A DNA stretch of 64,000 nucleotides from an uncultured Rhodospirillaceae bacterium. GTDB lineage: Bacteria; Pseudomonadota; Alphaproteobacteria; UBA9219. The DNA is taken from assembly GCA_964390005.1 (NCBI GenBank), contig CAYMGM010000003.1, positions 14,271 to 78,270 on the forward strand, given 5' to 3'. The notes beneath the pieces are model-generated. The model saw only the letters and a program-made list of their open reading frames with translations. It was not told where the DNA came from and ran no database searches. A program made the position numbers and the translations under genes. This document shows positions 8,162 to 58,671 of the stretch, one piece after another (the first letter of the stretch is position 1; each line of letters starts with the position of its first letter).

Positions 8162-11100
8162 ATGCGGAGAGACGAAGGAACAGGGCGTATTTTCTATGCG
8201 CCGACGGATTTGGTGACATATCTTGAATGTCCCTTTGCCACGTTGTTCGATCTTCAACAAACGCTTCACCCCATCAAACTTGCCAAGAGCGAAGACGATA
8301 GCGCGAAGCTTCTTGAACAAAAGGGGCTGGAACACGAACGGCACTATCTTGAACAGCTTCGGCGCGAGGACCTCTCAGTCGTCGAGATCCCGTCGAATAT
8401 TTCCATTCCTCGACGGATCGAGATGACGCGTGCGGCGCTGAAGGCAGGTCCTGATGTGATTTATCAAGCGGCGCTTGGCGACGAGGTTTGGACAGGGTTT
8501 GCCGATTTTCTTTTGAAAACAGACCGGCCTTCGGGGCTGGGGGCGTTCAGCTATGAAGTTGCCGACACGAAACTCGCCCTTTCGCCAAGGCCGGAGTTTG
8601 TCGTTCAGCTTTTTGTCTATTGCGAGCTTTTAGCCAAGGAGCAGGATCTCGTTCCACGCGATCTGCACATTGTCTTGGGCGACAAGAGCAAGGTTTCTTT
8701 GCGCCTCGACGATTTTCGCTATTATCAGAAACTGGCGCAGGAGCGGTTTCTCTCTTTCGTTGAAAAAGGACATATGCCGCAGCCGGGCGAACCTTGCGCC
8801 CATTGTGACAAGTGCCGTTGGTTGAGTCTCTGCGAAGAGGAATGGGAGCGCACGGAACATCTTTCTTTTGTCGCGAATATTCGGGGCGAGCAGATCAAGA
8901 AACTCCGCCGCGCCGGGATCAACAGCATGCGCGATCTTGCAGCCCTGCCGGAGGGGCAGTCCGTTCCAAAAATGGCGCCTGAAACGCTGGCGACATTACG
9001 TGAGCAAGCACGTCTTCAGATCGCCAAAAAGGATGATGGCGAGAATCGCTGTGTTCTTTTGCCGTTTGCCCTGCATAAGGGACTTGCGCGTCTCCCTAAG
9101 CCCAATGAGGGCGATCTTTTCTTCGATATGGAGGGCGATCCGTATTACGACAATCCCCGCCTTGAATATCTCTTTGGCTTTGTTCTTTTGAATGAGCAAA
9201 AAGAGGACGTGTTCAAACCGTTTTGGGCGCATGATCGCGCGGCAGAAAAGAAGGCGTTTGAGGACGTGATGGATTTCATCATGGCGCGGCTTGAAGCCTA
9301 TCCCGACGCCTATATCTATCATTATGCGGCTTATGAAGAGACGGCGCTCAAGAATCTTGCCATGTATCACGGCACGCGCGAGGCCGAGGTCGATCATCTT
9401 TTGCGCAATCGCAAGCTTGTCGATCTTTACAAAGTTGTGCATGAGGGCATCCGCGTTTCCGAACCGCGCTACTCGATCAAAAATCTTGAGCATTTCTATG
9501 CGGAAAAGCGCGGCGGCGAGGTCAAGACAGCGGGCGACAGCATCGTTATGTACGAAAAATGGCGCGTGTTACAGGACGATACCATCCTTCAGGAAATAGC
9601 CGATTACAACGAGTTCGATTGCCGTTCGACCCTGCAATGCCGGGATTGGCTGCTAACCCTCAGACCGGAGGAGATGGATTGGTTTGCGCCTTACACAGAC
9701 GATGCGGAGGCGCGGGAGAACGAGGCAAAGCGTCGAGAAGCAGAAGCGGCGACGGCACAGCTTGCCGCGAACCTGACAAACAGCGTTTCGGAACAGGAAG
9801 CAGCATGGCGCGGTCTTTTAGGGCAGCTCTTGACCTTTCACCGACGTGAAGCAAAGCCGGGATGGTGGGCCTTCTTCACGCGGCGCGATCTAACGGACAA
9901 GGAGCTTATCGACGACGCGGAATGCCTTGGAAAATGTGAACGCGATATATCAGCGCAACCCTATAAACTCGGCCCACGTGACAGGTCTCTGGTTTACGAA
10001 TACAGGTTTCCGCCCCAAGACACAAAAATGCGAGAGGAGTATGATCCGGTCAATGCCTTCACCGGCAAGCGGATCGGTAAGATCGTTGGCCTTGATCGAA
10101 AAGGCGGCAAGGTTGCCCTTAAAATCGGAGACAAGCAGGCAAACCCGCCCGATCTTCTTTCGCTTATCCCGCAGAAACCGATTGAAAATAACGATATTCG
10201 TGGGGCCATCGGACGCTATGCCGAGGCTGTTGCAAGCGGAAGCGTCTCGCGTTACGCGGCCATTACGAGCATCCTGCGCCGTGATTTGCCTCGCCTTTCG
10301 GGGAGGGCTGAGGGGGCAAGCATACTTGGGCAAGGGGATGACACAACGTCGGCCTGTATCGATGCGGTCGGACGCCTCGACAACAGCCATTTGCTGATCC
10401 AAGGTCCGCCCGGAACGGGGAAGACCTATACCTCGTCTCATGCGATTGTTGCCCTTTTGAAGGCTGGAAAACGTGTCGGCGTTGCCTCGAATGCGCATAA
10501 GGCGATCAACAATTTGTTGGAGGCTGTTGAGAAGGAAGCCGAAAAACAGAACGTCAGATTCCGAGGCGTCAAAAAATGCACATATGACGATCATGCGCTT
10601 GCCAGCCGAGGGTTTATCGAGAACACGACAGACCTTAAACAGGCCGAAAGCGGCGGCTATAGCCTTGTCGCAGGCACGGCGTGGCTCTTTTCGCGCGTAG
10701 CGTTTGATCAAACGCTAGATTATCTCTTCGTTGACGAGGCAGGACAAGTCAGCCTCGCCAATGTCGTCGCAATGGGAACGGCGGCGCGCAATATCGTGCT
10801 TGTCGGCGATCAGATGCAGCTTGCTCAGCCAATCCAAGGCGCCCATCCGGGGCAATCCGGCCTTTCGGCTTTGGAATATCTTTTAGGGGACGCGGCAACG
10901 GTTCCGCCCGAACGCGGTATTTTTCTTGCCACGACGCGCCGCATGCATCCAGCCTTGTGCGGTTTTATCTCTGCCGCCGTTTATGAGGGCAAACTGCTTC
11001 CCGAACTCGACAATGCGCGCCGCCATCTTGTGGTGAACGGGCCGGAGGAAGATGAGGCTATTGTTCCGGCAGGCATTCGGTTTATCGAGGTTGAGCACGA

Positions 11101-11584
11101 AGGATGTTCGCAAAAAAGCGAAGAGGAAGTGGAACGTTTAAAAGCCACCTATGATCGCTTGCTTGGCATGAAGTGGGTGGATGAGACCGACGAGGAGCAT
11201 GTGATCGGCAAGGAAGATATCCTTGTCGTCTCGCCCTACAACATGCAGGTCAACGAGCTGCAAAAAGCGCTTGGCCCCGACGCGCGTGTCGGCACGGTGG
11301 ATCGTTTTCAGGGGCAGGAAGCGCCCGTTGTTTTGATCTCGATGGCGACATCGTCAGGCGAGGAGCTTCCGCGCGATATCGAGTTCCTTTTCAGCCGCAA
11401 CCGCCTGAACGTGGCCATCAGTCGCGCAAAATGTTTGGCCGTCCTTTACGCCAACCCGCGTCTCCTCGAAATCCCCTGCAGCACCATCGACCAGATGCGC
11501 CTTGTCAATACGCTTTGCTGGGTTCGTGCTTATGCGCATGCGTTCGGTGGGGGAGAAGTGGTAATTAGCGCGGCAGTGGCTTGA
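8162..11584 (+). CDS. Nuclease-helicase fusion: Cas4/RecB-like PD-(D/E)xK nuclease with Fe-S Cys cluster, TM0106-type RNaseH-like domain, C-terminal Upf1/Dna2-like SF1 helicase (Nhi-like defence candidate)
   Basis: 1140 aa; 'EVADTKL' D-x-K, 'C..CAHCDKCRWLSLC' 4-Cys cluster, 'FFDMEGDPYYD' DxE, Walker A 'LIQGPPGTGKTYT', 'VDEAGQ' motif II, 'VDRFQGQE' motif V/VI. Confidence 0.75.
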   Translation: MRRDEGTGRIFYAPTDLVTYLECPFATLFDLQQTLHPIKLAKSEDDSAKLLEQKGLEHERHYLEQLRREDLSVVEIPSNISIPRRIEMTRAALKAGPDVIYQAALGDEVWTGFADFLLKTDRPSGLGAFSYEVADTKLALSPRPEFVVQLFVYCELLAKEQDLVPRDLHIVLGDKSKVSLRLDDFRYYQKLAQERFLSFVEKGHMPQPGEPCAHCDKCRWLSLCEEEWERTEHLSFVANIRGEQIKKLRRAGINSMRDLAALPEGQSVPKMAPETLATLREQARLQIAKKDDGENRCVLLPFALHKGLARLPKPNEGDLFFDMEGDPYYDNPRLEYLFGFVLLNEQKEDVFKPFWAHDRAAEKKAFEDVMDFIMARLEAYPDAYIYHYAAYEETALKNLAMYHGTREAEVDHLLRNRKLVDLYKVVHEGIRVSEPRYSIKNLEHFYAEKRGGEVKTAGDSIVMYEKWRVLQDDTILQEIADYNEFDCRSTLQCRDWLLTLRPEEMDWFAPYTDDAEARENEAKRREAEAATAQLAANLTNSVSEQEAAWRGLLGQLLTFHRREAKPGWWAFFTRRDLTDKELIDDAECLGKCERDISAQPYKLGPRDRSLVYEYRFPPQDTKMREEYDPVNAFTGKRIGKIVGLDRKGGKVALKIGDKQANPPDLLSLIPQKPIENNDIRGAIGRYAEAVASGSVSRYAAITSILRRDLPRLSGRAEGASILGQGDDTTSACIDAVGRLDNSHLLIQGPPGTGKTYTSSHAIVALLKAGKRVGVASNAHKAINNLLEAVEKEAEKQNVRFRGVKKCTYDDHALASRGFIENTTDLKQAESGGYSLVAGTAWLFSRVAFDQTLDYLFVDEAGQVSLANVVAMGTAARNIVLVGDQMQLAQPIQGAHPGQSGLSALEYLLGDAATVPPERGIFLATTRRMHPALCGFISAAVYEGKLLPELDNARRHLVVNGPEEDEAIVPAGIRFIEVEHEGCSQKSEEEVERLKATYDRLLGMKWVDETDEEHVIGKEDILVVSPYNMQVNELQKALGPDARVGTVDRFQGQEAPVVLISMATSSGEELPRDIEFLFSRNRLNVAISRAKCLAVLYANPRLLEIPCSTIDQMRLVNTLCWVRAYAHAFGGGEVVISAAVA

Positions 11585-11624: not shown

Positions 11625-12503
11625 TCAGTTTTTTTGTGCTTCACTCGAAGAAGAAAGGTATTTTTGGAAGAAGCCATCAGGAGCATCGTGTTCTGCACAA
11701 CAATAGGCGCGCTCCGCAGCTTGTGAAACAACTTCGCGGTTAACCCGTTTTACAATATCGCTGGGGGCGGATGCCAACAGAAGCCTCTTCGCTTTTGAGT
11801 CAGGCTTGAAGGCGAAAAAGATATGGCGTGGCGTTAGCGGTAGAACAATTACACAATTCGGATCATTTAGGCCCGTCGTAAATAGACAAGGTCTATCTGA
11901 TGTTAAAATACGGTTAGACGCATGGAATGCGTCCATCAAGAACCAATCCATCGACAAAATATCGCTTAAAACGTTTGAATTCGAAATGATTTTAGGAAGT
12001 TGTTTAACGCCAATATTTTCGATAAGCGCAGGGTGGTTTATTTCTACCCAGTCTTTCAGACTTTCGGGTACTTCCCCATTTAATGAGGTTGAGTCTGGTG
12101 AGCTCTTGCCTTCAAGATAATCTGAAAATTGATCGCGGAGTGTTGTTTTGATTCTTGTTACAGTTTCCGGATTTCTGATTTTCATGCTCGAGATAAATTG
12201 AGCCCATCGGATCTTTTCTTTTTTGGTTAAAGGGGCGCCCGAGATAAACTTTGCTTTTATTTCCGCTCCTGCATTATCGATCGGTTTAAAAAACCTCGTT
12301 TCAATCTCAGATCTATCTGAGGCATGAAATGCTTTTGAATATGCATATAGAAAATCCCTATACCCCGTTCCTTTGGGGGCTTTCTGTCTTTTTGAAATTA
12401 TCCCGTCAAAATTTCTAATTTCCCAAAGCTCATGGGTTCCATGTGCTACCCATGATTTCAGGTAAAACTGCGGAACAAAGTGGTGCTTCGTTGAAGTTGC
12501 CAT
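11625..12503 (-). CDS. DUF4238-like protein (defence-island associated family); true start at internal Met
   Basis: Starts MATSTKHHFVPQFYLKSW, which is the HxVPxFYL signature I associate with DUF4238; AGGA RBS 9 nt upstream; the long N-terminal extension in the ORF track is rejected. Confidence 0.6.
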   Translation of the reverse strand: MATSTKHHFVPQFYLKSWVAHGTHELWEIRNFDGIISKRQKAPKGTGYRDFLYAYSKAFHASDRSEIETRFFKPIDNAGAEIKAKFISGAPLTKKEKIRWAQFISSMKIRNPETVTRIKTTLRDQFSDYLEGKSSPDSTSLNGEVPESLKDWVEINHPALIENIGVKQLPKIISNSNVLSDILSMDWFLMDAFHASNRILTSDRPCLFTTGLNDPNCVIVLPLTPRHIFFAFKPDSKAKRLLLASAPSDIVKRVNREVVSQAAERAYCCAEHDAPDGFFQKYLSSSSEAQKN

Positions 12504-12550
12504 TATAATTTTTCCTGCTTGATATCGATTTGAAGCATGATGTCTTTTGG

Positions 12551-13540
12551 TTACGGTAGTCCATCCCATTTCCGCTGTGCGCCAGTCACCATCTTTCGGA
12601 GCGCCGACGGTTTTATCACTTCGACCTGATCGCCCCACATGTAGAGGTGCCATGTCATTTCCAAGAGCCCGCCCGCGCGGAAACGCACGATGAGCGCGCC
12701 ATCCTTTTTCTCTTCCGTTTTCTGGTTTGGATGAAAGACAAACTCTCTCGCGGCTTGTGCCGCCTTGGGCGTGAACTTCCAGACGATGTCTTGTGGTTTC
12801 TCCATCCATACGCCGAAGGATTGGTCGGCATAGGCCTGAAGATCGAACGTAGGATCGCGATGAAAGCCGTCTTTCGTGACGGTAACGCTTTCAATTTGCG
12901 AGAGGATGAAATGATACCGCGCGGCCTCGCGGCCTTTTTCGGTTCCGCCGCCGACTAGATAGTGCCGGTGGCCATAGAGAAAGCCATAGGGCGCAACGCG
13001 CTTTATCTCGGCTTGCGGTTTGCCCTTTGCATGATAGAGAATCTCGACAATCTTGCAGGCTTTGATCGCTTCGCGAAGCGCATGCAGGTGCTCGGCATTC
13101 AATTTAGGCCGGGGGCCGGGGCGCGTGGCAAGACCTTCGGCTTCGATCAGTGCTTCAAGGTCAGGTTCAACCCGGCGCGAGACGTCGCATTTCTGAAGCG
13201 TTTTGATCTTTCCGCAAAGCGACCGCAGAGCCTTCGCTTGCAAACCAAGCCCGCGTCCAGCAAAGGCCTTCGTCGCCATATCAAGGCTGGCCAGCTCGTC
13301 CGGCGTCAAGGCTAAATGCCGCCCGTTGGTCGAGGACGGGATCCGCCAACGTTTGATCCTGTTTTCATCCGTTGTCTCATCGACCTGCGGATAAACGCGC
13401 ACCACGGCATCGCGCATGCGCATGGCCGTGCGGCGGGAGACGTCAAACATATCGATGATTTCCGTGAGGGTGACACCTTCGGCATTCGACTGCATGGCAA
13501 ACGCGAGGTTCAGTAGGTCTTCGGCTTTTTCGAAACGCAT
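12551..13540 (-). CDS. WYL-domain transcriptional regulator (HTH-WYL-WCX; BrxR/CapW-like)
   Basis: 'GVTLTEIIDMFDVSRRTAMR' wHTH; WYL domain 'PYGFLYGHRHYLVGG'; C-terminal WCX-like 'WHLYMWGDQVEVIKP'. Start taken at MRFEKAEDLL. Confidence 0.75.
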   Translation of the reverse strand: MRFEKAEDLLNLAFAMQSNAEGVTLTEIIDMFDVSRRTAMRMRDAVVRVYPQVDETTDENRIKRWRIPSSTNGRHLALTPDELASLDMATKAFAGRGLGLQAKALRSLCGKIKTLQKCDVSRRVEPDLEALIEAEGLATRPGPRPKLNAEHLHALREAIKACKIVEILYHAKGKPQAEIKRVAPYGFLYGHRHYLVGGGTEKGREAARYHFILSQIESVTVTKDGFHRDPTFDLQAYADQSFGVWMEKPQDIVWKFTPKAAQAAREFVFHPNQKTEEKKDGALIVRFRAGGLLEMTWHLYMWGDQVEVIKPSALRKMVTGAQRKWDGLP

Positions 13541-13826
13541 CGACAATCCCCAACAAAAACACTGGGGAAGAGCCTGCCACAAGTGATCCGGTTGGCCAAG
13601 AGCGCATGTGACCGGAATTGTCATGTCCGGGTGCTAGAATAGAAAGCGTTAACAGAGTGGTGTGCCATGAAGCCATTAAAACTTGTCCCGTCAAAAGGTC
13701 TTGAAATGCTTTTGAGTGCATTCGGCATTCTGGGGACTATGGAGGCGAGAAAGACCAAAAAAGCCAAATACACGAACTATATCCTTGTCTATGGCCCCGA
13801 TAATAAGGTCCAAACTGTTGAAACCA

Positions 13827-13954: not shown

Positions 13955-16891
13955 ATGAGGGCGCAAAACGAACAAATCGAGACAGGCGGAGGCGGAAACA
14001 AAACACCCATATCCCCTTATCATGCCAAATATTTTGCGCACGAGATTTCGACCAAGAAATCCGCCGCTGCCGTTGATCGCCTGACAACCTCGCTTTTCGA
14101 TGCCGCCGTTGATTTAAACCCCCATCAGATTGAGGCCGCCCTTTTTGCCCTTCGCTCCCCCTTATCCAAGGGCGTTATGCTGGCCGATGAAGTCGGTCTC
14201 GGCAAAACCATTGAGGCGGGTATCCTGCTTTGCCAAATGTGGGCCGAGCATAAGCGGCGCTTGCTTGTCATTTGCCCAGCCGTTTTGCGCCGCCAATGGT
14301 CGATAGAGCTTGAGGAAAAGTTCAACCTGCCGACGCTTGTGCTGGAAGGCAGTAATTATGCCGAGCGCAGCCAAGCAGGCGATCCCTTCGATTTCAAAGG
14401 CGTCGTCATTATTTCCTACCAGTTCGCGAACCGCTGCGCCGACGAGCTTAAGGCCGGGTTATGGCATTTGGTCGTGATCGACGAAGCCCACAAACTGCGA
14501 AATCTGTTCAAAAAAGACAACAAGATGGGCCGCACGATCCAAGCGGCCTTGGCCGATCACAAAAAGGTCCTTCTTACGGCCACACCTTTACAAAATTCGC
14601 TCATGGAGCTTTACGGCCTCGCCTCGCTGATAGACGAGCGCATCTTTGGCGGGATTGATACGTTCCGCACGGCCTATGTCAACGGGACGCCCAATATAGA
14701 TGATCTCAAAGACCGCCTTGCGCCCTTTGTCCAACGCACCCTTCGGCGACAGGTTTTGGAATATATCCGCTATACACGCCGCGAAGCGGTTACCCAGCCT
14801 TTCAGGCTTTTGGGTGACGAACAAAAACTCTATGACGAAGTCTCTGACTTCCTGTTGCAGCAAGATACCTACGCCATCCCATGGGCGCAAAGAAAGCTGG
14901 TCGTTCTTATTGTTCGCAAGCTTCTGGCGTCTTCCTCTTATGCCCTGATTGGAACGTTAGAGACGATCAAGGCGCGGCTGGAACGTATGCGGGAAACGCG
15001 GCGCGAGGAAAAGTTGAACCTGCGCACCGCCTTTGTCGCCGGGCAAGACATTGATATCGAATATGCCGAAGCAGGAGAGGAGGAAGGGCCCCAGCCCACG
15101 CCCCAGCGCAAGGAAATCGACCTCGAAAAGTTGGCCTATGAAATCGAACAAATCGAAGGTTTCATCGCCCTTGCGCGCTCGATCCGGATTGAAACAAAAG
15201 CCAAAGCGCTTCTCACAGCCCTGCAAACCGGCTTTGCCCGTATGGGGGAACTTGGCGGCGCGCGCAAAGCCCTTGTCTTCACGGAATCCAGTCGCACGCA
15301 GCGTTGCCTGAAGGACTATCTGGAAGACAACGGCTATCGCGGCAAGATCGTGACATTCAACGGCCAGAACACAGACGATCTTGCGAAGGATATTTACGCC
15401 CATTGGCTCAAAAAGAACGCCGAAACAGGCCGCGCCACGGGATCGAAAAACGTCGATATGCGCATGGCCTTGGTCGATTTCTTCCGCGACCGTGCCGAAG
15501 TGATGATCGCGACCGAGGCCGCCGCCGAAGGCATCAACCTTCAGTTCTGTTCGCTTATCGTCAATTACGACCTGCCTTGGAACCCGCAACGCATCGAACA
15601 GCGCATTGGCCGCTGCCATCGTTACGGGCAAAAGCACGATGTCGTCGTCATCAACTTCCTGAACCAAGACAATCTTGCCGATCAACGCATCTATGAATTG
15701 CTGAAAGAGAAGTTCCAGCTTTTCGACGGCGTCTTTGGCGCATCAGACGAGGTTCTAGGCCGCGTCGAATCCGGCATCGATTTCGAAAAGCGTGTGCTAG
15801 AGATTTTCGAGACCTGCCGCAAACCGGAAGAAATTGAACAAGCCTTCGTCGATCTTCAGGCCGAGATGGAAGAGCCAATCCAAAGCCGCATCGCCGAAAC
15901 GCGCACTCTGTTGTTCGAGCATTTCGACGAAGATGTCACCAAACACCTGAAGTTCAGCATGGAGGCGACAAAACAGCGCCTCGATACCGTCACGCACCAT
16001 TTCTGGGAGCTGACAAAGTTCGTCTATGCAGACCAGTTTTTCTTCAACGACGAAAAGCTGATCTTCGGCGACGATGCCGCCTTCATCGCGCGCGGCGAAA
16101 GGCCGGAAGGGGGCGAACATACGCCCATCTTCCACTATCTGGAAACGCGGCAGGGCGAGGTCAAAACAGGTCTGTCCGGCCAGCCCTATCGCATGGCGGG
16201 CCCGATGGGCGAGGCCGCCCTTCAAAAAGGGCGCGCGATGGAGACGCCACCCGCCGCGCTGGCCTTTGATTTTGCCTCATACCCCCACAAAATCGCCCTT
16301 TTGGAAGAACAAAGCGGCAAGCGCGGCTGGCTTTGGTGCGACAAGCTGACAATCAAAACGTTCGAGGAAACGGAAAGCCTGATCTTCACCGTCTGCGACG
16401 AAAATGGTGCGATCCTGCCGCCCGCGTTCGGCGAAAAGCTTTTCCTTCTATCGGCCACCAACGAAGGGGCCTTGGCCCCATGCCCCCACCAAAACGCGGT
16501 CGAAGCCGCGCGCGCGTCCAGCATCGAAGCCAGTCTGAAAGAATCGGAAATCAGCAACCACAGCTATTTCGAGGAAGAGCTGGATAAGCTCGACCGCTGG
16601 GCCGAGGATCTGAAAACGGGCCTAGAGATGGAGCTGAAACAGCTCGACCGCGACATCCGCGAGGCTGCCCGTCAATCGAAACAGAGGGTCAGCCTTGCCG
16701 AAAAGCTGGCTTTTCAGAAGCAAAAAGCGGCCCTCGAAAAACGCCGCTCCCAAAAACGCCACGAGCTTTTCCAAAGCCAAGACAAGATTGACGCAAGGCG
16801 CGAAGAGCTTATTAATCAATTAGAACGGCAACTGCAGGATAGCAGGCATGAGGTGGTGCCGCTGTTTTGCGTGGGATGGAGGGTTTCGTGA
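13955..16891 (+). CDS. SNF2/RAD54-family helicase (DISARM DrmD-like)
   Basis: 978 aa; motif I 'ADEVGLGKTIEAG', 'VVIDEAHKLRN', 'LLTATPLQNSLMELY', C-lobe 'IATEAAAEGINLQ...NYDLPWNPQRIEQRIGRCHRYGQ'. Confidence 0.85.
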   Translation: MRAQNEQIETGGGGNKTPISPYHAKYFAHEISTKKSAAAVDRLTTSLFDAAVDLNPHQIEAALFALRSPLSKGVMLADEVGLGKTIEAGILLCQMWAEHKRRLLVICPAVLRRQWSIELEEKFNLPTLVLEGSNYAERSQAGDPFDFKGVVIISYQFANRCADELKAGLWHLVVIDEAHKLRNLFKKDNKMGRTIQAALADHKKVLLTATPLQNSLMELYGLASLIDERIFGGIDTFRTAYVNGTPNIDDLKDRLAPFVQRTLRRQVLEYIRYTRREAVTQPFRLLGDEQKLYDEVSDFLLQQDTYAIPWAQRKLVVLIVRKLLASSSYALIGTLETIKARLERMRETRREEKLNLRTAFVAGQDIDIEYAEAGEEEGPQPTPQRKEIDLEKLAYEIEQIEGFIALARSIRIETKAKALLTALQTGFARMGELGGARKALVFTESSRTQRCLKDYLEDNGYRGKIVTFNGQNTDDLAKDIYAHWLKKNAETGRATGSKNVDMRMALVDFFRDRAEVMIATEAAAEGINLQFCSLIVNYDLPWNPQRIEQRIGRCHRYGQKHDVVVINFLNQDNLADQRIYELLKEKFQLFDGVFGASDEVLGRVESGIDFEKRVLEIFETCRKPEEIEQAFVDLQAEMEEPIQSRIAETRTLLFEHFDEDVTKHLKFSMEATKQRLDTVTHHFWELTKFVYADQFFFNDEKLIFGDDAAFIARGERPEGGEHTPIFHYLETRQGEVKTGLSGQPYRMAGPMGEAALQKGRAMETPPAALAFDFASYPHKIALLEEQSGKRGWLWCDKLTIKTFEETESLIFTVCDENGAILPPAFGEKLFLLSATNEGALAPCPHQNAVEAARASSIEASLKESEISNHSYFEEELDKLDRWAEDLKTGLEMELKQLDRDIREAARQSKQRVSLAEKLAFQKQKAALEKRRSQKRHELFQSQDKIDARREELINQLERQLQDSRHEVVPLFCVGWRVS

Positions 16892-17718
16892 GGATTGTTT
16901 GGAAAACCATAATTGATTTTTGGTTGGCCTCACTAGACGTAGTGACTATCTGGGTTCAGCCTGTGCTGGTTGGGGTGAGCGTTCTTGCAAGTGCTTTTTT
17001 AACTTATGATTTTTCTCATGTTTACTCGTATGTTCCAAGTTGGAAGCATCAGATTGATCTACTCAGATCGGCCCTTCCCATTACGCTAGTGTTGACCCAA
17101 GTCTTCCTGTTGGCTGTGTCCATTTTTCAGGGAATTAGGCAATGCTCAATTCGCAAGTTGAAAAAACAAGTGGATGAATACAGAGAAAAAATAAATATCA
17201 TTGCAAGCAATGTTGAAACGCTTGTTGATGGTATATTGTTGAGATTGGCGGAAAAGCTAAAATTGGACAAAGGAGATCCATCGCGGCTAACAATTTATAT
17301 CCACAACAGCAATGGACACTTTATTTCCTTCGGACGGTACTCCCCAGACCCATCTCTGAATGAAAAGGGAAGGAGCCTGCTGCCTGACAACGCGGGGTGT
17401 ATATCTCAGGCGTGGAAGAGTGATTGGTGTTATGAGGGGAATTTGAGTTCTAAAGATTGCCGCCAAAAATACAAAGTTGAGCAGTCCGTTGTTGATGGAT
17501 TGAGAATGAAATCAAGGTTCTATGCCGTTAAAAGAATTGACTCATCAAACAAGCGACCTTTGGCTGTCGTTGTTTTTGAATCTGTCACCGCAAACAAGTT
17601 TGACGAACAAAAAATCAGAAACCTTCTGAACGGAGAAGAAGCATATCTAGCAGAGATAATCGATTGTCTGAAAGAGCATATTCCTAACCCGCAAGATGCG
17701 CAGAAATGGGGGTTCTAA
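16876..17718 (+). CDS. AT-rich membrane protein: 2-3 N-terminal TM helices plus cytoplasmic domain (PanT-like toxin candidate)
   Basis: ATG overlaps the last codons of the SNF2 gene; hydrophobic stretches 'VQPVLVGVSVLASAFL' and 'ALPITLVLTQVFLLAVSIF'; markedly lower GC than neighbours. Confidence 0.6.
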   Translation: MEGFVRIVWKTIIDFWLASLDVVTIWVQPVLVGVSVLASAFLTYDFSHVYSYVPSWKHQIDLLRSALPITLVLTQVFLLAVSIFQGIRQCSIRKLKKQVDEYREKINIIASNVETLVDGILLRLAEKLKLDKGDPSRLTIYIHNSNGHFISFGRYSPDPSLNEKGRSLLPDNAGCISQAWKSDWCYEGNLSSKDCRQKYKVEQSVVDGLRMKSRFYAVKRIDSSNKRPLAVVVFESVTANKFDEQKIRNLLNGEEAYLAEIIDCLKEHIPNPQDAQKWGF

Positions 17719-18206
17719 TGACCGCACTTAAAGACATCATTGCTTATGTGTGTAAGACCTATCCTTCGAACTTGCAGGATGAGTTGTCAAATGCACGTGT
17801 CACCAAAATGATTTACCTTGCTGATTGGAGGCAAGCGATCGAACATGGGCGCCAGATTTCAGATATTGACTGGTTCTTCGACAATTACGGGCCTTACGTT
17901 GATGATGTGAGGAAAGAAGTTGCTGAAAACAATTCGATTTTTGACCTTCAGCATGTTCAGAATATGTACGGGCAGCCAAAGAACCTGATTAAGCTTAAGG
18001 ATAAGAACTATGCGCCGTCCCTTTCTGATGATCAAAAGAAGTCAATTGATCATGTTATTGAAATGACTAAAAAAATGTATTGGGACACATTCATCAAGCT
18101 CGTTTATTCAACATATCCCATAACTTCTTCAGAAAGGTATTCGCATCTCAATTTGCTTGAGAAGGCTTCTGAATATAAGGCTCAGAAAGAAGAAAAAGCA
18201 CCATGA
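17706..18206 (+). CDS. Panacea-domain (DUF4065, SocA/PanA-like) protein, putative antitoxin
   Basis: 'TKMIYLADWRQAIEHGRQISDIDWFFDNYGPYVDDV' matches the DUF4065 core (LqKLlYfa.gw......pLf...feAw.yGPV). Alternative start ATG 17718 overlaps upstream TAA (TAATG). Stop overlaps mod ATG (ATGA). Confidence 0.6.
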   Translation: MGVLMTALKDIIAYVCKTYPSNLQDELSNARVTKMIYLADWRQAIEHGRQISDIDWFFDNYGPYVDDVRKEVAENNSIFDLQHVQNMYGQPKNLIKLKDKNYAPSLSDDQKKSIDHVIEMTKKMYWDTFIKLVYSTYPITSSERYSHLNLLEKASEYKAQKEEKAP

Positions 18207-19888
18207 CCAAAAAGCAAAAGCTGGAATTGACGTGGATTGGGAAGGATCAGAGGCCTCGGTTGGAGCCTCGAATTTTGGTGGAGGATGATGCGCGGTCGTA
18301 TCATGCGGACAAACGCGTTACGGATCATGATCTATTCGACAATAAGCTGATCTTTGGCGACAATTTGCTCGCGCTCAAGGCGCTGGAGCAGGAGTATGCG
18401 GGGAAGGTCAAATGCGTCTTTATCGATCCGCCCTATAACACCGGATCGGCCTTCACGCATTACGACGACGGGCTTGAGCATTCCATCTGGCTCGGCCTCA
18501 TGCGCGACCGCTTGGAGATCCTGCGCAACCTCCTCTCCGAAGACGGCTCAATCTGGATCACCATCGACGACAACGAATGCCATTACCTCAAGGTGCTTTG
18601 CGATGAGGTGTTTGGAAGGGGAAACTTTTTGTGCGATATCGCTTGGGAGAAGCGATATTCTCCTCCACCGGACACAAAGGACTTTGGCTATGTACACGAT
18701 CATATTTTGGTCTACAGAAAGACACCAGCTTTTCGACGCAACTTATTGCCCTTAACGGAAGACCAATCTGGTCGATATAAAAATCCAGATAACGATCCCC
18801 GCGGCCCTTGGAAAGCTATGGATTACACTTGTCGATATTCTGCCGACGAACGCCCTAATCTCAATTATCCGATTATACAGCCCCACACGAAGAAAGAGAT
18901 ATGGCCAAACAAAACGCGAGTCTGGGCAATGTCGCGGGAAGTTCATGAAAAGAACGAACGAGAGAATAGAATTTGGTGGGGAACAAAAGGCACAAATAAT
19001 GTTCCTGCACTAAAAAACTTTTTCTCGGATATCAATCAGGGCATGATGCCAATGTCATTATGGAAACATACTTTGGCAGGCCATAATCAAGATGCGATGA
19101 AAGAAATGTTATCTCTCTTTGGGCGAGATGTTTTTTCAACACCAAAACCCGAGCGCTTGATACATACGGTTCTTCACATAGCCACCAATCCCAACGACCT
19201 CGTCCTCGACTCCTTCGCGGGTTCTGGCACCACCGGCGCTGTTGCTCATAAGATGGGGCGGCGGTGGATTATGATTGAGTTGGGGGAGCATTGTCATACG
19301 CATATCATTCCGCGCCTCAAGAAAGTGATCGATGGCGAGGATAAGGGCGGGATTACCGAGGCGGTGGCTTGGAAAGGCGGCGGGGGCTTTCGGTATTATG
19401 CGCTGGCGCCGTCTCTCATCACAATGGACAAATACGGTCAAGCGGTCATCAACAAAGACTATGACCCCGCCATGCTGACGCAGGCCATGTGCAAGCTGAT
19501 GGGCTTTGCCTATGCGCCGTCTGAGACCGTTTATTGGCAGCAAGGTCATTCAACCGAGACCGACTTTATCTATGTGACGACGCAAACGCTGGATCAGGCG
19601 CAGCTCGCCGCTCTTTCGGAAGAAGTGGGGGACAAGCAAAGCCTCCTCATCTGCTGCTCGGCCTTTCGCGGCAAGGCAGACGGTTTCGAAAACCTAACCC
19701 TCAAAAAAATCCCTCGCGCGGTGTTGGCCAAATGCGAATGGGGCCACGACGACTACAGCCTCAACGTCCAAAACCTGCCTCTCGCCGAGGAGGACCAAGT
19801 GGACATCCCCACGCCGCGCAAACAAAAAGCCAAAGCGCGTGCCAAGGCAAAAGCGGCGGAACCTTCTTTGTTTGGAGATGTGGAATGA
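18203..19888 (+). CDS. mod: Type III restriction-modification Mod subunit (beta-class N6-adenine DNA methyltransferase)
   Basis: 561 aa; 'FIDPPYN' motif IV precedes 'DSFAGSGTTGAVA' motif I (beta permutation); central variable TRD. Confidence 0.85.
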   Translation: MTKKQKLELTWIGKDQRPRLEPRILVEDDARSYHADKRVTDHDLFDNKLIFGDNLLALKALEQEYAGKVKCVFIDPPYNTGSAFTHYDDGLEHSIWLGLMRDRLEILRNLLSEDGSIWITIDDNECHYLKVLCDEVFGRGNFLCDIAWEKRYSPPPDTKDFGYVHDHILVYRKTPAFRRNLLPLTEDQSGRYKNPDNDPRGPWKAMDYTCRYSADERPNLNYPIIQPHTKKEIWPNKTRVWAMSREVHEKNERENRIWWGTKGTNNVPALKNFFSDINQGMMPMSLWKHTLAGHNQDAMKEMLSLFGRDVFSTPKPERLIHTVLHIATNPNDLVLDSFAGSGTTGAVAHKMGRRWIMIELGEHCHTHIIPRLKKVIDGEDKGGITEAVAWKGGGGFRYYALAPSLITMDKYGQAVINKDYDPAMLTQAMCKLMGFAYAPSETVYWQQGHSTETDFIYVTTQTLDQAQLAALSEEVGDKQSLLICCSAFRGKADGFENLTLKKIPRAVLAKCEWGHDDYSLNVQNLPLAEEDQVDIPTPRKQKAKARAKAKAAEPSLFGDVE

Positions 19889-20415
19889 GCAATCTTATTG
19901 ATGGGCTAGCTTTGGTCGTTGCGCTGGGATCAGCTGTGGTTTCTTGTTTATCTGCGGGAGCTGCAAAGGCCTCCGCAGACGCTGCAAAAATCTCTGCGGA
20001 GGAAACGAAGAAACAACGAAAGATTAGCCAATATGTGACATTGTCCCCCCATTTTTTTGCTGTAAGCCAGATTCTTTCAGCCCTAAGCGATGGAAAGGAA
20101 ACACCGAAGCGTCTTCTTGCGGCAAGAGACTCTCTTGTCTTTTTAAAGAAAGCTTTACCAAAGGACGAAGAGCTAATTGCCGTTGTCAATGAGATCGAAT
20201 ACAGATTTGAAGAGACGATCTCCGATGGCATTACAACCTTTAGAAGTCATTTAGTAAATTACCCAGCAAGGGAGACTGAGGATAACTTTGCTCAATTCAA
20301 TCTCGATCATAACGTCGATAAGGATCCAACTAAAAAAAGATTTAAAATTGCGCAACTAAAGGAAATGCTGTCGATGATTGAAGGAAGATATATTTCTTTG
20401 GATGACACCCCATGA
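19885..20415 (+). CDS. Small membrane-anchored protein of unknown function inserted between mod and res
   Basis: ATGA overlaps with both the mod stop and the res start; N-terminal TM helix 'LIDGLALVVALGSAVVSCLSAGAA'; AT-rich. Confidence 0.55.
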   Translation: MSNLIDGLALVVALGSAVVSCLSAGAAKASADAAKISAEETKKQRKISQYVTLSPHFFAVSQILSALSDGKETPKRLLAARDSLVFLKKALPKDEELIAVVNEIEYRFEETISDGITTFRSHLVNYPARETEDNFAQFNLDHNVDKDPTKKRFKIAQLKEMLSMIEGRYISLDDTP

Positions 20416-23066
20416 ACCGTTTCCTCAACGCCATCTCAAACCGCCTCTCTCTCCGCACGCCGCAGCGGGAGTCTCTTGAAATCCTTGCGCGCGTGGCGGA
20501 CGTCGTGCCGCTCAACAAAACGCGCGATGTGGCTGAGGCGCTGCGGGTCATTCACGAGGATTATCCGAGCGTTGAGGATTTTGAGCGCGATTTTCCTTCG
20601 CTCTGTTTTGCGCTTGCCACGGGCGTTGGCAAAACGCGGTTGATGGGGGCGTTTATCGCTTACTTGCATCTTGCGAAGGGCATGAAGCATTTCTTCGTGC
20701 TGGCCCCAAACCTCACCATCTATAACAAGCTCATTGCCGATTTCACGCCAAACACGCCGAAATATGTGTTTCAGGGGATTGCGGAGCTGGCGATCACGCC
20801 GCCGGAAATCATCACGGGCGACAATTACGAAAGCGGGCGCGGCATTCGCGGCACCGACCTTTTGGGCCAAGCCGACAACATTCACGTCAACATCTTCAAC
20901 ATCTCGAAAATCAATACCGAGACGCGGGGCGGGGCCTCGCCGCGCATCAAGCGGCTTTCGGAATACTTAGGCGAAAGCTATTTCGAATATCTGTCCAAGC
21001 TCGACGATCTTGTTTTGCTGATGGATGAATCGCACCGTTACCGCGCCTCGGCGGGCATTCGGGCGCTGAATGAACTGAACCCCGTTCTTGGGCTTGAACT
21101 GACCGCGACGCCGCAGATTGAAAACGGTGCAAAGGCCGTGCCGTTCAAGAACGTGATCTATAGCTATCCGCTCTACAAGGCGATGGAAGACGGCTATGTG
21201 AAGGAACCGGCGGTTGCCACGCGTGAAAACTTCGATCCATCTAAGTTCACGGAAGACGAGCTGGAGAAAATCAAGCTCGAAGACGCTATTTGCATTCATG
21301 AAAACGTCAAGGCCGAGCTGAAGGTCTATGCCGATAACAACAATCGGCCTTTGGTCAAGCCCTTTATCCTCGTCGTCGCGCAGGACACGACGCATGCCGA
21401 AAATCTGATGGCTTTGATTAAATCGGATGCCTTTTTCGAGGGGCGCTATCGGGATCGCGTGATTACGGTGCATTCGAACCAGCGCGGCGAGGAAAAGGAC
21501 GAGACGATCCAGAAACTTCTCTCGGTCGAAGACCCTGCCGAGCCGACCGAGATTGTTATTCACGTCAATATGCTGAAAGAAGGATGGGACGTCACCAACC
21601 TTTACACGATTGTGCCTTTGCGTGCGGCGAACTCGCGCACGCTTGTTGAACAATCGATTGGGCGCGGGCTTCGTTTGCCTTATGGAAGGCGCACAGGTGT
21701 TGCCGCCGTAGATCGTTTGACCATTGTGGCACACGACCGGTTTGATGAGATTATCCGCGAGGCGAACGATCAACACTCGATCATCCGCGCAGGCGTTGTG
21801 ATTGGCAAAGACATTGCCGCCAAGCCGAAGCAAGCCGTTGAGATTAAATCGAACATTGAATTGATCGTGACCGGCGAAGCGCCGGTGAAACCGGAACAAA
21901 AGCCTTTGTTCACAGAAGAAGAGCGTCCGATTGCCAAGGCCTCGTTTGAGGCGATACGGGATTTTGAGCGTCTGCCAAGCTCGCGCGATCTTCTGAAGCC
22001 GGAAACGCAACAGAAAATCGTCGAGCGCGTGATTGAGAAAATCACGCCCGCGCAGGGAACGCTTGGCGGGATCATTGAAAAGCCCAATGTTGAGAACATC
22101 GTCCGGCGTCAGATTGAAGCCTATGTCCAGAACACCATCGACATTCCGCGTGTGACCGTGACGCCGATTGGCGCGGATAGCTATGCGTTCACGGACTTCG
22201 ATCTTGATACAAAAAACCTGCCGCGCCTTCAGCCTGTCGAGGATAAAATCCTGATCCAGAATTTGCGCACTTATGAGCGCGAGCAAATGGCCAAGGGCGA
22301 GGCCATCGGCCAAGAAGCGCGACTGGAGGACTATATCGTCGCCGTTCTGATCGATAAGGATGACATTTCCTATGATGACCACGCCGACCTGCTCTACAAA
22401 CTGGCGGGGCAAATGGTGGCGTTTATTTTTTCCTATTTGGGAGATACCGAGAAGACGAAAAACGTCATTCAGTTTTATCGCACAAAGCTGGCCGATTTGA
22501 TCCATGCGCAGATGGATGCGCATGTGAAGCTTGGCTACACGGACTTTCAGGCTTCCGTTACGCGCGGGTTTGAGCAGCCGAAAATGGGTGCGGTAACGAT
22601 TGATGCGGGCGAGAAAGTCAGAAACTTCCGGCAGACGTTGGCCAATGTTTCCGACATTCGCGGCATGGTGTTCGAAGGTTTTTCAAAATGCCTCTATCCG
22701 CAGCAGAAGTTTGATTCCGACACGGAACGCCAGATGGCTATCTTGCTCGAAGACGAAAAGAGCGTTCTGAAATGGTTCAAGCCTCTGCGCAATGACGTTA
22801 AAATCTACACGAATGAAAATGACGGTTATGAGCCTGATTTTGTCGTGGAAACTTCTGGCGAGAAGCTTCTTATCGAGACCAAACGTGCGGACGAAGTCGA
22901 AAGCGATGCGGTCCAGCAGAAAGCTCGCGCCGCACTCAAATGGTGCGAGGCGGCCACAAAACATGAAACGGAGAATGGAGGCAAACCGTGGCGGTATCTT
23001 CTGGTGCCCCACGATGCCGCTAAGCCGAATGCGACGCTTGGTGGATTATTGGTTCAGTACCGCTAG
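20412..23066 (+). CDS. res: Type III restriction enzyme Res subunit (SF2 helicase plus C-terminal PD-(D/E)xK nuclease)
   Basis: 884 aa; Walker A 'LATGVGKTRLMG', 'LLMDESHRY' DEAH-like, C-terminal 'EPDFVVE...LLIETKRADE'. Confidence 0.85.
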   Translation: MNRFLNAISNRLSLRTPQRESLEILARVADVVPLNKTRDVAEALRVIHEDYPSVEDFERDFPSLCFALATGVGKTRLMGAFIAYLHLAKGMKHFFVLAPNLTIYNKLIADFTPNTPKYVFQGIAELAITPPEIITGDNYESGRGIRGTDLLGQADNIHVNIFNISKINTETRGGASPRIKRLSEYLGESYFEYLSKLDDLVLLMDESHRYRASAGIRALNELNPVLGLELTATPQIENGAKAVPFKNVIYSYPLYKAMEDGYVKEPAVATRENFDPSKFTEDELEKIKLEDAICIHENVKAELKVYADNNNRPLVKPFILVVAQDTTHAENLMALIKSDAFFEGRYRDRVITVHSNQRGEEKDETIQKLLSVEDPAEPTEIVIHVNMLKEGWDVTNLYTIVPLRAANSRTLVEQSIGRGLRLPYGRRTGVAAVDRLTIVAHDRFDEIIREANDQHSIIRAGVVIGKDIAAKPKQAVEIKSNIELIVTGEAPVKPEQKPLFTEEERPIAKASFEAIRDFERLPSSRDLLKPETQQKIVERVIEKITPAQGTLGGIIEKPNVENIVRRQIEAYVQNTIDIPRVTVTPIGADSYAFTDFDLDTKNLPRLQPVEDKILIQNLRTYEREQMAKGEAIGQEARLEDYIVAVLIDKDDISYDDHADLLYKLAGQMVAFIFSYLGDTEKTKNVIQFYRTKLADLIHAQMDAHVKLGYTDFQASVTRGFEQPKMGAVTIDAGEKVRNFRQTLANVSDIRGMVFEGFSKCLYPQQKFDSDTERQMAILLEDEKSVLKWFKPLRNDVKIYTNENDGYEPDFVVETSGEKLLIETKRADEVESDAVQQKARAALKWCEAATKHETENGGKPWRYLLVPHDAAKPNATLGGLLVQYR

Positions 23067-27543: not shown

Positions 27544-27759
27544 ATGGCTATTCCCGATTGTGCCCGCGTGAATTTTGAGACCCTGCTCCGCGCTGCGCAA
27601 AACGGCGATCTTGCGCTTCTGGAATGCGCGGACGCCGCGACGGGCGTGCCGCGCTACGTCGTTTGCGCCGTGGGGCGGGATGAAAACGATTTTGTCTTCA
27701 CGCCGTTCGGGCATCTGGCGGAGGGGAATCCTTACGAGGCCTACCGTCCGCCAGAGTGA
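27544..27759 (+). CDS. Hypothetical small ICE protein
   Basis: 71 aa MAIPDCARVNFETLL...; tightly packed between neighbours. Confidence 0.45.
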   Translation: MAIPDCARVNFETLLRAAQNGDLALLECADAATGVPRYVVCAVGRDENDFVFTPFGHLAEGNPYEAYRPPE

Positions 27760-27845
27760 GAGGAAGGCCGGGAGGAAGCGAGCCGGAAAGGACAAGAGAA
27801 AGTCCGGTCCGGCTCGATCTTCAACCTTATCCCGGAGACCCTCCC

Positions 27846-34401: not shown

Positions 34402-35190
34402 TTAGTGTGGCGCTCTCACAAAACCGTGCCGCCTCTTGTCCAACAATGAAGCATTGGATCTCGTACATGCAGGAAAGCATCCCTTGTCAGAATGGGCGGT
34501 TATTATTCGTCCTGCCTCGTACACACCGAAAATTGTATTGGATGGCAAACAATGTCCATAAGGACCTTGGCGCTTTAACAAGATTGACGAGCTTCCATGT
34601 TCATCATGAGAAGATTCAAACGGAAGCAACAACGGTGGCTTCCTTATCTCTCCGTTCACAGAAAGGGTTTGGGAAAATAGATCGATGATATGATCTTTAA
34701 CGAAATCAATTGCGCCATATCGCATAGCGATGCCCAGAGCGATACTCGATACGCTCATGGTCAGGCTGATCTTGAAATATTTCATGGCCCTTTTTTTCGC
34801 GGCGACAAGCTGCTCGTTGGTTCCATCCAATTTCTTGTGCAAAATAGCATTCTCTCTTATCAAGTTCTCATTTTGAACCTGAATGGAGGTTGTCACGTCG
34901 GTAACGGTTGATATTTTTGATTCGATAACGGCAAGCCTTCTCGAATTTTCAGCTTCGAGGCTGCCTGCCTGTTCTTCCAATTCTTGACGGGCGTCTTGGA
35001 TAAGCCCATCCGTGAATTCTTCATCCGATAGAAGAGCAAGCGCAACAGGAAGGGTTAGTTTGCGGCCGACGATTTCTTCCTGAAACATTTTTAGGGCAAC
35101 GGCGGCGACAGCGTTGTCTTCCTTCTTTTTCGAAGAGAAAACCTCAAGAGAGCCCCGGATAAAATCTTTCCACGATTTTACTATGCCCAT
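34402..35190 (-). CDS. AT-rich coiled-coil protein with C-proximal TM helix; paralog of 43197-44285
   Basis: Shared motif 'KKRAMKYFKISLTMSVSSIALGIAM' vs 'KQRAIRYFKVSVTMGSTGLLIGLIGLA'. Confidence 0.55.
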   Translation of the reverse strand: MGIVKSWKDFIRGSLEVFSSKKKEDNAVAAVALKMFQEEIVGRKLTLPVALALLSDEEFTDGLIQDARQELEEQAGSLEAENSRRLAVIESKISTVTDVTTSIQVQNENLIRENAILHKKLDGTNEQLVAAKKRAMKYFKISLTMSVSSIALGIAMRYGAIDFVKDHIIDLFSQTLSVNGEIRKPPLLLPFESSHDEHGSSSILLKRQGPYGHCLPSNTIFGVYEAGRIITAHSDKGCFPACTRSNASLLDKRRHGFVRAPH

Positions 35191-55958: not shown

Positions 55959-55977
55959 CTCTCGCCGAGCGGGGAAC

Positions 55978-58507: not shown

Positions 58508-58531
58508 TGGGGTAACTCCATATGTCAGATC

Positions 58532-58556
58532 ACCTATTACCCCACGATCTTACCCC
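58532..58556 (+). repeat. 25-bp repeat, partner of 5697-5721 (candidate arm-type site between int and the tRNA)
   Basis: acctattaccccacgatcttacccc. Confidence 0.5.
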
Positions 58557-58671
58557 AAAAAATCTTCGGCTGCCACCGGATTTCGCCGGAGCGCAATAGC
58601 CGAAAACGCGGCCTTTTTATTGGGTTTTTCGTGATTTTCCGGATGGTGCCGGATGCCTTCGGAAGGGTTTT

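Follow-up and report, generated by a model that had tools for sequence, protein, structure and literature searches.

The question raised by the region 13955-23066 of a 64,000-nucleotide stretch of DNA (hereafter called the window; contig CAYMGM010000003.1 of the assembly GCA_964390005.1), originating from an uncultured Rhodospirillaceae bacterium, is what kind of defence system it encodes. Six open reading frames (ORFs), all on the plus strand, specify in the order of their location an SNF2 ATPase (gene 1), a protein with two transmembrane (TM) segments (gene 2), a Panacea-domain protein (gene 3), a type III Mod methyltransferase (gene 4), a small membrane-anchored protein (gene 5), and a type III Res protein (gene 6). 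In an earlier note, prepared from the sequence alone, this arrangement was described as a so far unreported hybrid of class 1 DISARM and a type III restriction-modification (R-M) system, in which the SNF2 protein and the methylase constitute the DrmD/DrmMI core and Res stands in place of DrmA, DrmB, and DrmC. The results presented here lead to a different answer, which we consider probable: the locus is a member of a large family of three-component R-M operons (each combining an SNF2 ATPase with the Mod and Res of a type III system), situated in the cargo region of an integrative conjugative element (ICE) and carrying additional genes held in slots. The layout of this trio is common in bacteria, little studied, and already mentioned in the literature.

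The catalytic motifs are kept in all three core proteins. The product of gene 1 contains the Pfam domains SNF2-rel_dom and Helicase_C, with intact motifs GLGKT81, DEAH176, TATP208, and QRIGRCHR549, and its C-terminal region (amino acids (aa) ~690-978) is family-specific, with a charged end and a coiled-coil look judged by eye. At least 8000 homologous clusters were found for this protein; the closest solved structure is that of RapA, an enzyme which recycles stalled RNA polymerase. The product of gene 4 matched Pfam N6_N4_Mtase (E 3.7e-47) and the PADLOC model MTase_III (E 4.5e-218), and its motif order, with DPPY75 ahead of FAGSGT338, marks it as a beta-class enzyme like the type III Mods. 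Its only sequence relatives in the PDB are Mod proteins of type III enzymes, namely those of H. pylori (6k0w, E 6e-48) and EcoP15I (E 1e-30), and related beta-class methylases. The variable target-recognition region of this protein is encoded at approximately 18514-19202, and nucleotide similarity to one of the close relatives (L002) is lost exactly there, while the Mod protein of another relative (L028) is 92% identical to gene 4 along its whole length; the recognition region is predicted to be exchangeable, as in other type III systems.

The product of gene 6 matched Pfam ResIII (E 2.5e-21) and PADLOC REase_III (E 4.8e-229), together with Pfam RE_endonuc (E 1e-4), the last match being slightly short of its cut-off. 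Its motifs are GVGKT71, DESH205, TAT231, and QSIGRGLR414, and the C-terminal stretch EPDFVVETSGEKLLIETKR carries a PD...ExK motif, with E-x-K at residue 822 preceded by EPDFVV (the PD half was read from the sequence). The sole sequence relative in the PDB is EcoP15I Res, and this similarity is weak (E 3e-7, one short stretch). Two of the features by which a type III R-M system is recognized are therefore present in the locus, i.e., a beta-class Mod homologous to known Mods, and a Res with superfamily 2 (SF2) helicase motifs and a C-terminal PD-(D/E)xK nuclease motif.

For the analysis of the conservation of this trio, metagenome contigs were scanned with an alignment of 24 homologues of the SNF2 protein, which yielded 80 loci with a full-length SNF2 relative, and the ORFs of these loci were typed by phmmer with 16 Mod and 15 Res queries. 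Among the 38 loci with at least 9 kb available downstream of the SNF2 gene, 36 had both Mod and Res on the strand of SNF2, and Mod was found in 51 of the 58 loci in which 3 kb or more was available on that side. The order SNF2, Mod, Res is kept in close relatives from Alphaproteobacteria (SNF2 53-82% identical), including a Pseudochelatococcus locus, in which the trio has no genes between its members, and the linkage is kept in L002, L003, L005, L016, L018, L020, L023, and L028. SNF2 homologues with 41-48% identity were found on 53 plasmids; the order SNF2, DNA methyltransferase, Res-type helicase was observed on plasmids of Salmonella, Klebsiella, Blastomonas, Rhizobium, Deinococcus, and Planctomycetes. 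The order on a Conchiformibius plasmid differs (mod, res, SNF2), and a Hymenobacter plasmid stretch, which stops inside the methylase gene, shows SNF2 and the methylase only. When the SNF2 gene of the Klebsiella plasmid (L008) was compared with E. coli genomes by megablast, only two plasmid copies were retrieved; a distant-mode search with the same gene gave matches in 258 E. coli genomes, mostly partial ones, and the two chromosomal loci inspected both contained the SNF2-Mod-Res trio. These data show that the trio is a widespread, phylum-spanning unit with conserved linkage and order, and not a one-off hybrid. Routine separation of the SNF2 gene from mod and res was looked for and not seen, as they are linked in 36 of the 38 long loci and in all plasmid and E. 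coli loci inspected.

Two of the related loci deserve a separate mention. The metagenome-assembled genome that carries the complete operon L002 also contains a second SNF2 copy (82% identical; L001, 241-5965). Downstream of this copy come a truncated fragment of an AAA ATPase and genes for an Hsp70/MreB-like protein and a histidine phosphatase; neither mod nor res lies within 10 kb, and the copy may have decayed or been rearranged. In a Micavibrio locus (L003, 14389-15811), Mod is split into two overlapping ORFs of 219 and 302 aa, of which only the C-terminal half is like the Mod of the window; this could reflect a frameshift, decay into a pseudogene, or replacement of the N-terminal half.

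The DISARM hypothesis deserves a closer look, as the best profile matches of gene 1 are indeed DrmD models (PADLOC PDLC02619, E 1.5e-207, aa 46-678), a helicase linked to the type III system EcoR22I is likewise described as drmD-related (Silas et al. 2023, bioRxiv 10.1101/2023.04.06.535777), and modules built of an SNF2 protein and a methylase recur in DISARM, ARMADA, and BREX. What the locus shares with class 1 DISARM is a defence operon in which an SNF2 protein homologous to DrmD accompanies an adenine methylase. The homology is clear; however, the protein remains below both NCBIfam cut-offs for DrmD, with 691.5 bits against 950 for DrmD_b (NF038318), where only aa 46-685 were covered, so that the C-terminal third lies outside the model, and 242.6 bits against 610 for NF038317. 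An assignment at the equivalog level was therefore rejected. The same applies to a DrmMI-type methylase: gene 4 encodes a type III Mod, and the best 25 of its 59 PADLOC hits, down to E 2e-12, are all MTase_III, MTase_II, or orphan MTase models, with no DrmMI among them; the DrmMI-like methylase ArmB is, in turn, PglX/YeeA-like. Profile searches revealed no DrmA, DrmB (DUF1998), or DrmC (PLD) among the six operon proteins and nine neighbouring ones, and the DrmA model matched gene 1 solely via the common helicase core. Nothing has been replaced in this operon either, because Mod and Res are each other's normal partners. The membership tests thus largely refute the hybrid, which we regard as highly improbable. 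What stands of the earlier proposal is the true linkage of the SNF2 gene to mod and res and the absence of DrmA, DrmB, and DrmC; what falls is the DISARM label, on account of the cut-offs, of the methylase family, and of that same absence. The claim that the architecture had not been described does not hold, as the link between SNF2, mod, and res has already been noted for EcoR22I and cargo in two slots occurs across the family.

The anatomy of the operon, summarized in Table 1, agrees with the earlier description, as the coordinates of the six ORFs and all five overlapping junctions were confirmed when the ORF list and the junctions were read, and the domains proposed for the proteins (SNF2, Panacea, Mod, Res, and TM proteins) were upheld by profile searches and hydropathy.

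Table 1. Genes of the SNF2-Mod-Res operon and the divergent gene preceding it (positions in the window).
Feature	Position	Strand	Length and remarks
Gene 1, DrmD-like SNF2 (Swi2/Snf2) ATPase	13955-16891	+	978 aa
Gene 2 (slot A), 2-TM membrane protein with GAF-like domain	16876-17718; possible starts 16867/16876/16888	+	276-283 aa by start
Gene 3 (slot A), Panacea (SocA/DUF4065) domain protein	17706-18206; alternative ATG 17718	+	162-166 aa
Gene 4, type III Mod, beta-class N6-adenine methyltransferase	18203-19888	+	561 aa
Gene 5 (slot B), small protein, N-terminal membrane anchor and helical bundle	19885-20415	+	176 aa
Gene 6, type III Res, SF2 helicase-like ATPase and C-terminal PD-(D/E)xK nuclease	20412-23066	+	884 aa
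WYL/WCX-domain protein, divergent from the operon	12551-13624	-	Pfam WYL and WCX; PADLOC WYL; 329 aa (12551-13540) in the gene call on another assembly

At the first junction, the ATG at 16876 lies 16 nt before the TGA of gene 1 (16889-16891), and an alternative start overlapping it as GTGA is located at 16888; this GTG was taken as the start of gene 2 when genes were called independently on a different assembly of this sequence. Genes 2 and 3 meet at TAATG (17716-17720), and genes 4, 5, and 6 each begin at an ATGA overlap (18203, 19885, and 20412, respectively). For gene 5, the ORF lister gave a TTG start at 19534, with the ATG at 19885 in the same frame. The mod gene precedes res on the same strand, and the two are joined by overlapping junctions via an intervening ORF, which has one N-terminal hydrophobic segment and an ATGA at both ends, in agreement with the earlier statement that a membrane-anchored ORF splits them. 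The AT-richness ascribed to the two-gene cassette was also seen, the GC content being 0.42 for gene 2 and 0.40 for gene 3 (and 0.42 for gene 5), against 0.51-0.55 in the three core genes. An independent assembly (Logan SRR9878565) is identical up to and including gene 3, which makes an assembly artefact unlikely for this part of the operon. Overlaps of the ATGA type are commonplace in bacterial operons; they suggest co-translation without proving it. A consensus scan for promoters and terminators gave counts not exceeding those of shuffled controls, with no clear promoter 5' of 13955 and no terminator 3' of 23066, and was uninformative on the transcription unit. A search for tandem repeats found none, and thus nothing points to phase variation of mod or res.

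The comparison of related loci revealed two positions at which operons of this family accept additional genes. The gap between SNF2 and Mod (slot A) does not exceed 150 bp in 25 of the 58 loci and spans 433-7721 bp in the remaining 33, and the gap between Mod and Res (slot B), measured in 47 loci, is at most 15 bp in 33 and 323-3068 bp in 14. Cargo is present in 30 of the 47 complete operons, and 17 are bare; in slot A it is commoner beside the short type of Mod (28/38 loci) than beside the long one (5/20). The ORFs in the gaps, nearly all on the plus strand, are very diverse, as 116 of them were grouped into 63 singletons and 19 small clusters. Domains found in slot A include AAA_15/AAA_21/OLD-TOPRIM, Schlafen AlbA_2, AIPR, M78 with HTH_3, SIR2, HerA, Fic, and HipA, and those of slot B are RhuM, GmrSD, DUF3800, HNH, and YhcG; the PADLOC names assigned to cargo are Old, AriA, GajA, PtuA, AbiU, AbiLi, and mad3. 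As judged by these domains, the cargo of the family is composed mostly of abortive infection (Abi), toxin-antitoxin (TA), or OLD-type genes. In the window, nucleotide similarity to the relatives ends at 16882 and returns at 18198, and it is absent again between 19877 and 20409. Because the similarity breaks at the borders of the slots and the cargo varies across the family, the embedded genes of the window are regarded as local fillings of family-wide slots. The accessory modules pointed out in the earlier note are therefore real, and they are not peculiar to this locus.

Among individual examples of such cargo, slot B of a deltaproteobacterial genome (L020, 15023-16814) holds an AAA_15/AAA_21 ATPase and a DUF4276 protein, and a DUF262 (GmrSD-type) protein is encoded between mod and res of a Rhizobium plasmid (L010, 12917-14188). 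The two-slot cargo structure, as well as the 2-TM/GAF-Panacea pair and the family of mod-res junction proteins described below, were not met in literature searches, which were mostly aimed at the link between SNF2 and type III systems and none of which was aimed at the embedded genes; all three are variations on known themes.

Slot A of the window is occupied by genes 2 and 3. The product of gene 2 gave no family hit; hydropathy analysis indicated two hydrophobic TM segments (~aa 11-40 and 56-85), and the protein has a GAF-like fold. According to the positive-inside rule, the basic residues located after the second TM segment would place the GAF-like domain in the cytoplasm. The product of gene 3 matched Pfam SocA_Panacea (PF13274, E 9.3e-13, 49.5 bits at a cut-off of 25.7) and shares 59-62% identity with the Panacea proteins that accompany gene-2 homologues in L023, L025, and L026. 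Members of the gene-2 family are rare (16 clusters among 5.8 billion proteins), and in every context retrieved a Panacea gene directly follows such a member, the two genes abutting or overlapping. The pair was found inside a distant SNF2-Mod-Res operon (L023, with SNF2 only 44% identical), and twice outside R-M operons, i.e., among housekeeping genes (L025) and next to DnaB (L026/L027). This showed that genes 2 and 3 form an autonomous two-gene module.

Panacea proteins neutralise very diverse toxins through direct binding, and three PanT toxins with TM helices proved to depolarise membranes (Kurata et al. 2022, PMC8832971). The window pair resembles PanAT pairs in having a Panacea gene beside and overlapping a gene for a protein with TM helices, and in being kept as a unit in unrelated contexts; a Panacea domain in one partner and a two-gene unit recurring across such contexts are among the features by which these pairs are recognized. 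The pair is best read as a putative PanT/PanA toxin-antitoxin module, in which the 2-TM protein would be the toxin. In contrast to the membrane-targeting PanT proteins, the candidate toxin of the window is larger (276-280 aa) and possesses the predicted cytoplasmic GAF-like domain.

The second embedded gene position, slot B, contains gene 5, whose product gave no domain hit and has one N-terminal hydrophobic segment in the hydropathy profile. A word-indexed homologue search retrieved only the protein itself, and this, together with the low GC content and the lack of a domain hit, could suggest a chance ORF in the mod-res spacer instead of a real gene. The probability of such an explanation is close to negligible, as the ORF fills the gap between mod and res exactly, with an ATGA overlap at each end, an exhaustive HMMER search of 1.84 billion representatives revealed seven distant relatives, and homologous ORFs of 148-177 aa sharing a common motif occupy the same position in five other loci. 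The ORFs of this size in L002, L003, L016, and L028 show 22-28% identity to gene 5 and a clear common motif. The AlphaFold model of the protein, with a pLDDT (predicted local distance difference test) of 79, which is confident for a short alignment, also argues for a real gene, and consists of a long N-terminal helix followed by a helical bundle.

Wherever the gene-5-like proteins could be located (the window, L002, L003, L016, L028, and L110), their genes lie between mod and res, and two further contigs were too short to judge. In L110, the gene of the relative lies between those of a Mod of 547 aa and a Res of 893 aa, and no SNF2 gene directly precedes them; as the junction protein occurs here without an adjacent SNF2, the gene-5 family belongs to the short Mod/Res subtype and not to SNF2. 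The family diverges far faster than its neighbours, among which Res is ~80-90% identical and Mod up to 92% at the protein level.

The association of SNF2 with mod and res was previously noted for EcoR22I of E. coli ECOR22, and, according to the same source, mod and res alone sufficed for restriction of lambda-vir and for cell death triggered by Ocr, and restriction needed the PD-(D/E)xK motif, with D1024 and D1043 as the active-site residues of Res (10.1101/2023.04.06.535777). The EcoR22I trio is like the E. coli and plasmid loci that hold relatives of the window SNF2. As far as may be concluded from these residue numbers, EcoR22I represents the long Mod/Res subtype (~1040 and 1120 aa in long-type loci), whereas the window operon represents the short one (561 and 884 aa). 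EcoR22I is located in a P4 satellite hotspot, and the accessible part of its description mentions no embedded genes, while the operon analyzed here is carried by an ICE and contains them.

With canonical type III R-M systems (EcoP15I, EcoP1I, and H. pylori Mod) the window operon shares a beta-class Mod whose variable recognition region is central, the location of mod upstream of res, and a Res combining SF2 motifs with a C-terminal PD-(D/E)xK nuclease; it differs in that a third conserved partner, SNF2, is encoded upstream, an ORF separates mod from res, and a TA-like pair lies between the SNF2 gene and mod. ARMADA consists of ArmA (SNF2), ArmB (a PglX/YeeA-like methylase), ArmC (YprA-like), and ArmD, and armA-less mutants lysed upon phage infection like the mutant of the whole system. 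Both ARMADA and the BrxHII/PglX module of BREX resemble the locus in that an SNF2-type ATPase is encoded beside a methylase in a methylation-based defence. Membership in ARMADA was rejected: that system relies on a YprA-like helicase-nuclease effector and a PglX-like methylase, whereas the partners in the window are a type III Mod and Res, and the operon encodes neither a YprA-like ArmC nor a PglX-like methylase. MANTIS, which is a different system, was also rejected.

Membership in MADS was rejected as well, since the window has no helix-turn-helix (HTH) gene upstream of the operon and no mad model was found among the PADLOC hits listed for the six proteins, which for gene 1 are the best 25 of 54 and for gene 4 the best 25 of 59. 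An excisionase-type HTH gene (NCBI name MAD1) precedes SNF2 in some relatives, including 7-8 of 75 metagenome loci; no remnant of it was found upstream of SNF2 in the window. It is also worth mentioning that the PADLOC mad3 model was matched by 8 of 65 slot A ORFs of the metagenome loci (best E 4e-35). There are hints that the SNF2-Mod-Res family shares parts with MADS.

Some findings weigh against regarding the locus as a three-component R-M operon with slot-held cargo, and they should be considered together. Within the DNA available, SNF2 genes without mod or res were found in L001 and in 7 of the 58 loci that continue for at least 3 kb beyond SNF2; two of these 7 continue for at least 9 kb. 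The EcoR22I SNF2 gene was dispensable for both lambda-vir restriction and Ocr-triggered death, as stated in the preprint (10.1101/2023.04.06.535777), and the role of SNF2 is therefore possibly subtle or conditional; the transfer of the EcoR22I results to the window locus is itself uncertain, because the Mod/Res subtypes apparently differ. That the six genes constitute a single transcription unit we infer from the gene overlaps, and the structural matches of gene 5 are generic helical bundles only.

Within the reading of the locus as a three-component R-M operon, the following mechanism may be proposed, for which the biology of EcoP15I and other type III enzymes is the model. Mod would recognise a short asymmetric site and hemimethylate the host DNA, and on an unmodified invader Mod-Res would act through ATP-driven communication between inversely oriented sites, followed by a cut made by the PD-(D/E)xK nuclease. 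Specificity would switch via a swap of the Mod recognition region, the segment that is unlike L002. The SNF2 protein would most likely serve, and here our confidence is low, as an auxiliary double-stranded DNA translocase working with Mod/Res, which clears or remodels protein-bound DNA or controls loading. In slot A, a candidate membrane toxin would be restrained by the Panacea protein and provide addiction or an abortive-infection back-up, and the slot B protein, specific to this Mod/Res subfamily, would most likely assist the Mod-Res complex or act as an effector linked to it.

The relation of the embedded genes to restriction may be viewed in several ways. It is possible, and we find it somewhat doubtful, that the slot genes, gene 5 likewise, are pure hitch-hikers, i.e., selfish or independent defence cassettes which recombined into a well-expressed operon and are functionally unconnected with it. 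The extreme heterogeneity of the cargo (63 singletons among 116 ORFs), the GC content of the slot genes, lower than that of the core, the autonomy of the gene 2/3 pair in other contexts, and the existence of 17 operons without cargo among 47 all fit such a view; against it stand the gene-5 family, so far known only from mod-res junctions, the almost constant co-orientation of the cargo, which in the window is joined via overlapping start and stop codons, and the recurrence of insertions at the same two borders across phyla. By analogy with known caged effectors, gene 5, and possibly the gene 2/3 pair, might instead be guarded, i.e., kept inactive by Mod-Res or by operon expression and freed when a phage anti-restriction protein disables restriction, an idea that we judge unlikely. 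Small membrane proteins linked to R-M systems can be caged death effectors; for instance, HsdMS suppresses RonA, a TM protein of 61 aa, and ArdA or Aop1 releases it, an analogy with PrrC being drawn in the same paper. The constant position of gene-5-like proteins between mod and res where located, the very fast evolution of gene 5 (22-28% identity beside a ~80-90% identical Res), which fits an arms-race interface, and the dominance of Abi and TA-type genes in the family-wide cargo are consistent with this idea. PrrC/EcoprrI and RonA/Ronin are similar to the window locus in that the R-M genes enclose or adjoin an additional gene, RonA being, moreover, a small TM protein; they differ in coming from type I contexts, and the functional parallel to gene 5 and gene 2 is a hypothesis by analogy.

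A bolder extension of this thinking would treat the SNF2-Mod-Res operons as a platform whose two fixed slots couple restriction, physically or by regulation, to suicide effectors, with gene 5 as a third subunit or caged effector, the gene 2/3 pair as a second trigger, and SNF2 possibly sensing or resetting a blocked complex; we hold it to be quite improbable. If true, it would provide type III systems with anti-anti-restriction immunity, which has been documented so far mainly for type I (PrrC and Ronin).

Returning to the three-component R-M operon as the preferred reading, its significance lies in the fact that type III enzymes are treated as two-protein machines, and SNF2 would be a conserved third partner of theirs. 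This protein is homologous to the unexplained helicases DrmD, ArmA, and BrxHII, which suggests a common function across methylation-based defences, and the compact SNF2-Mod-Res trio could be the simplest system for studying it. Because the slots collect abortive-infection and TA genes, type III operons appear to be a place in which new defence genes, such as those of the 2-TM/GAF protein and the small membrane protein, may be sought. As far as annotation is concerned, such loci should be named SNF2-associated type III R-M systems, and not partial DISARM.

The genomic context of the operon is an ICE, which occupies a large part of the window and adjoins a tRNA-Ala gene. Its genes encode an integrase, a relaxase-like DUF3363 protein, a coupling protein, TrbE, and TrbI, as well as a ParB-like protein, a 1472-aa methylase-helicase, a Toprim protein, and DUF736. 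The GC content of the first 27 kb of the window is below that of the transfer region, and this segment looks like the cargo region of the ICE, carrying the SNF2-Mod-Res operon. The tyrosine integrase gene (57317-58747) is located beside tRNA-Ala(CGC) and marks one end of the element; no direct repeat of the tRNA-Ala end of at least 13 nt was found in the window, and the far boundary of the ICE was not located.

Divergently from the operon, a WYL/WCX-domain protein is encoded, which, from its position only, is a candidate regulator of the operon. The DNA coding for its N-terminal part is conserved upstream of the SNF2 operon in L002 and L016, and gene calls placed a WYL/WCX gene upstream in L015, L016, and L017. 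A 1140-aa protein (8162-11584, plus strand) combines an RNase_H_2-like domain with a superfamily 1 helicase (AAA_11/AAA_12) and shows partial PADLOC matches to MkoA/MkoC of Mokosh; in L016/L017 a 1136-aa counterpart is placed likewise with respect to the WYL gene and the SNF2 operon, and the protein may be part of a larger conserved defence island. The minus-strand gene that lies downstream of the WYL regulator (11625-12809) encodes a DUF4238 protein (292 aa in the call on another assembly), for which no PADLOC or NCBIfam hit was obtained; at the equivalent position, L016 has two unrelated small genes.

Beyond the operon, the 1472-aa protein of the ICE (27756-32174, plus strand) is composed of an N-terminal methyltransferase and a Strawberry-notch-type helicase (AAA_34 and Helicase_C_4). 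Its methylase part gave a weak match to PADLOC mad2 (E 2e-9), and the protein is probably an anti-restriction or establishment protein of the conjugative element. Finally, three patches of low GC content (0.46-0.50 against a background of 0.60-0.64), at 34402-35190, 43197-44285, and 55338-56892, contain ORFs without Pfam hits and may represent further cargo insertions within the ICE.

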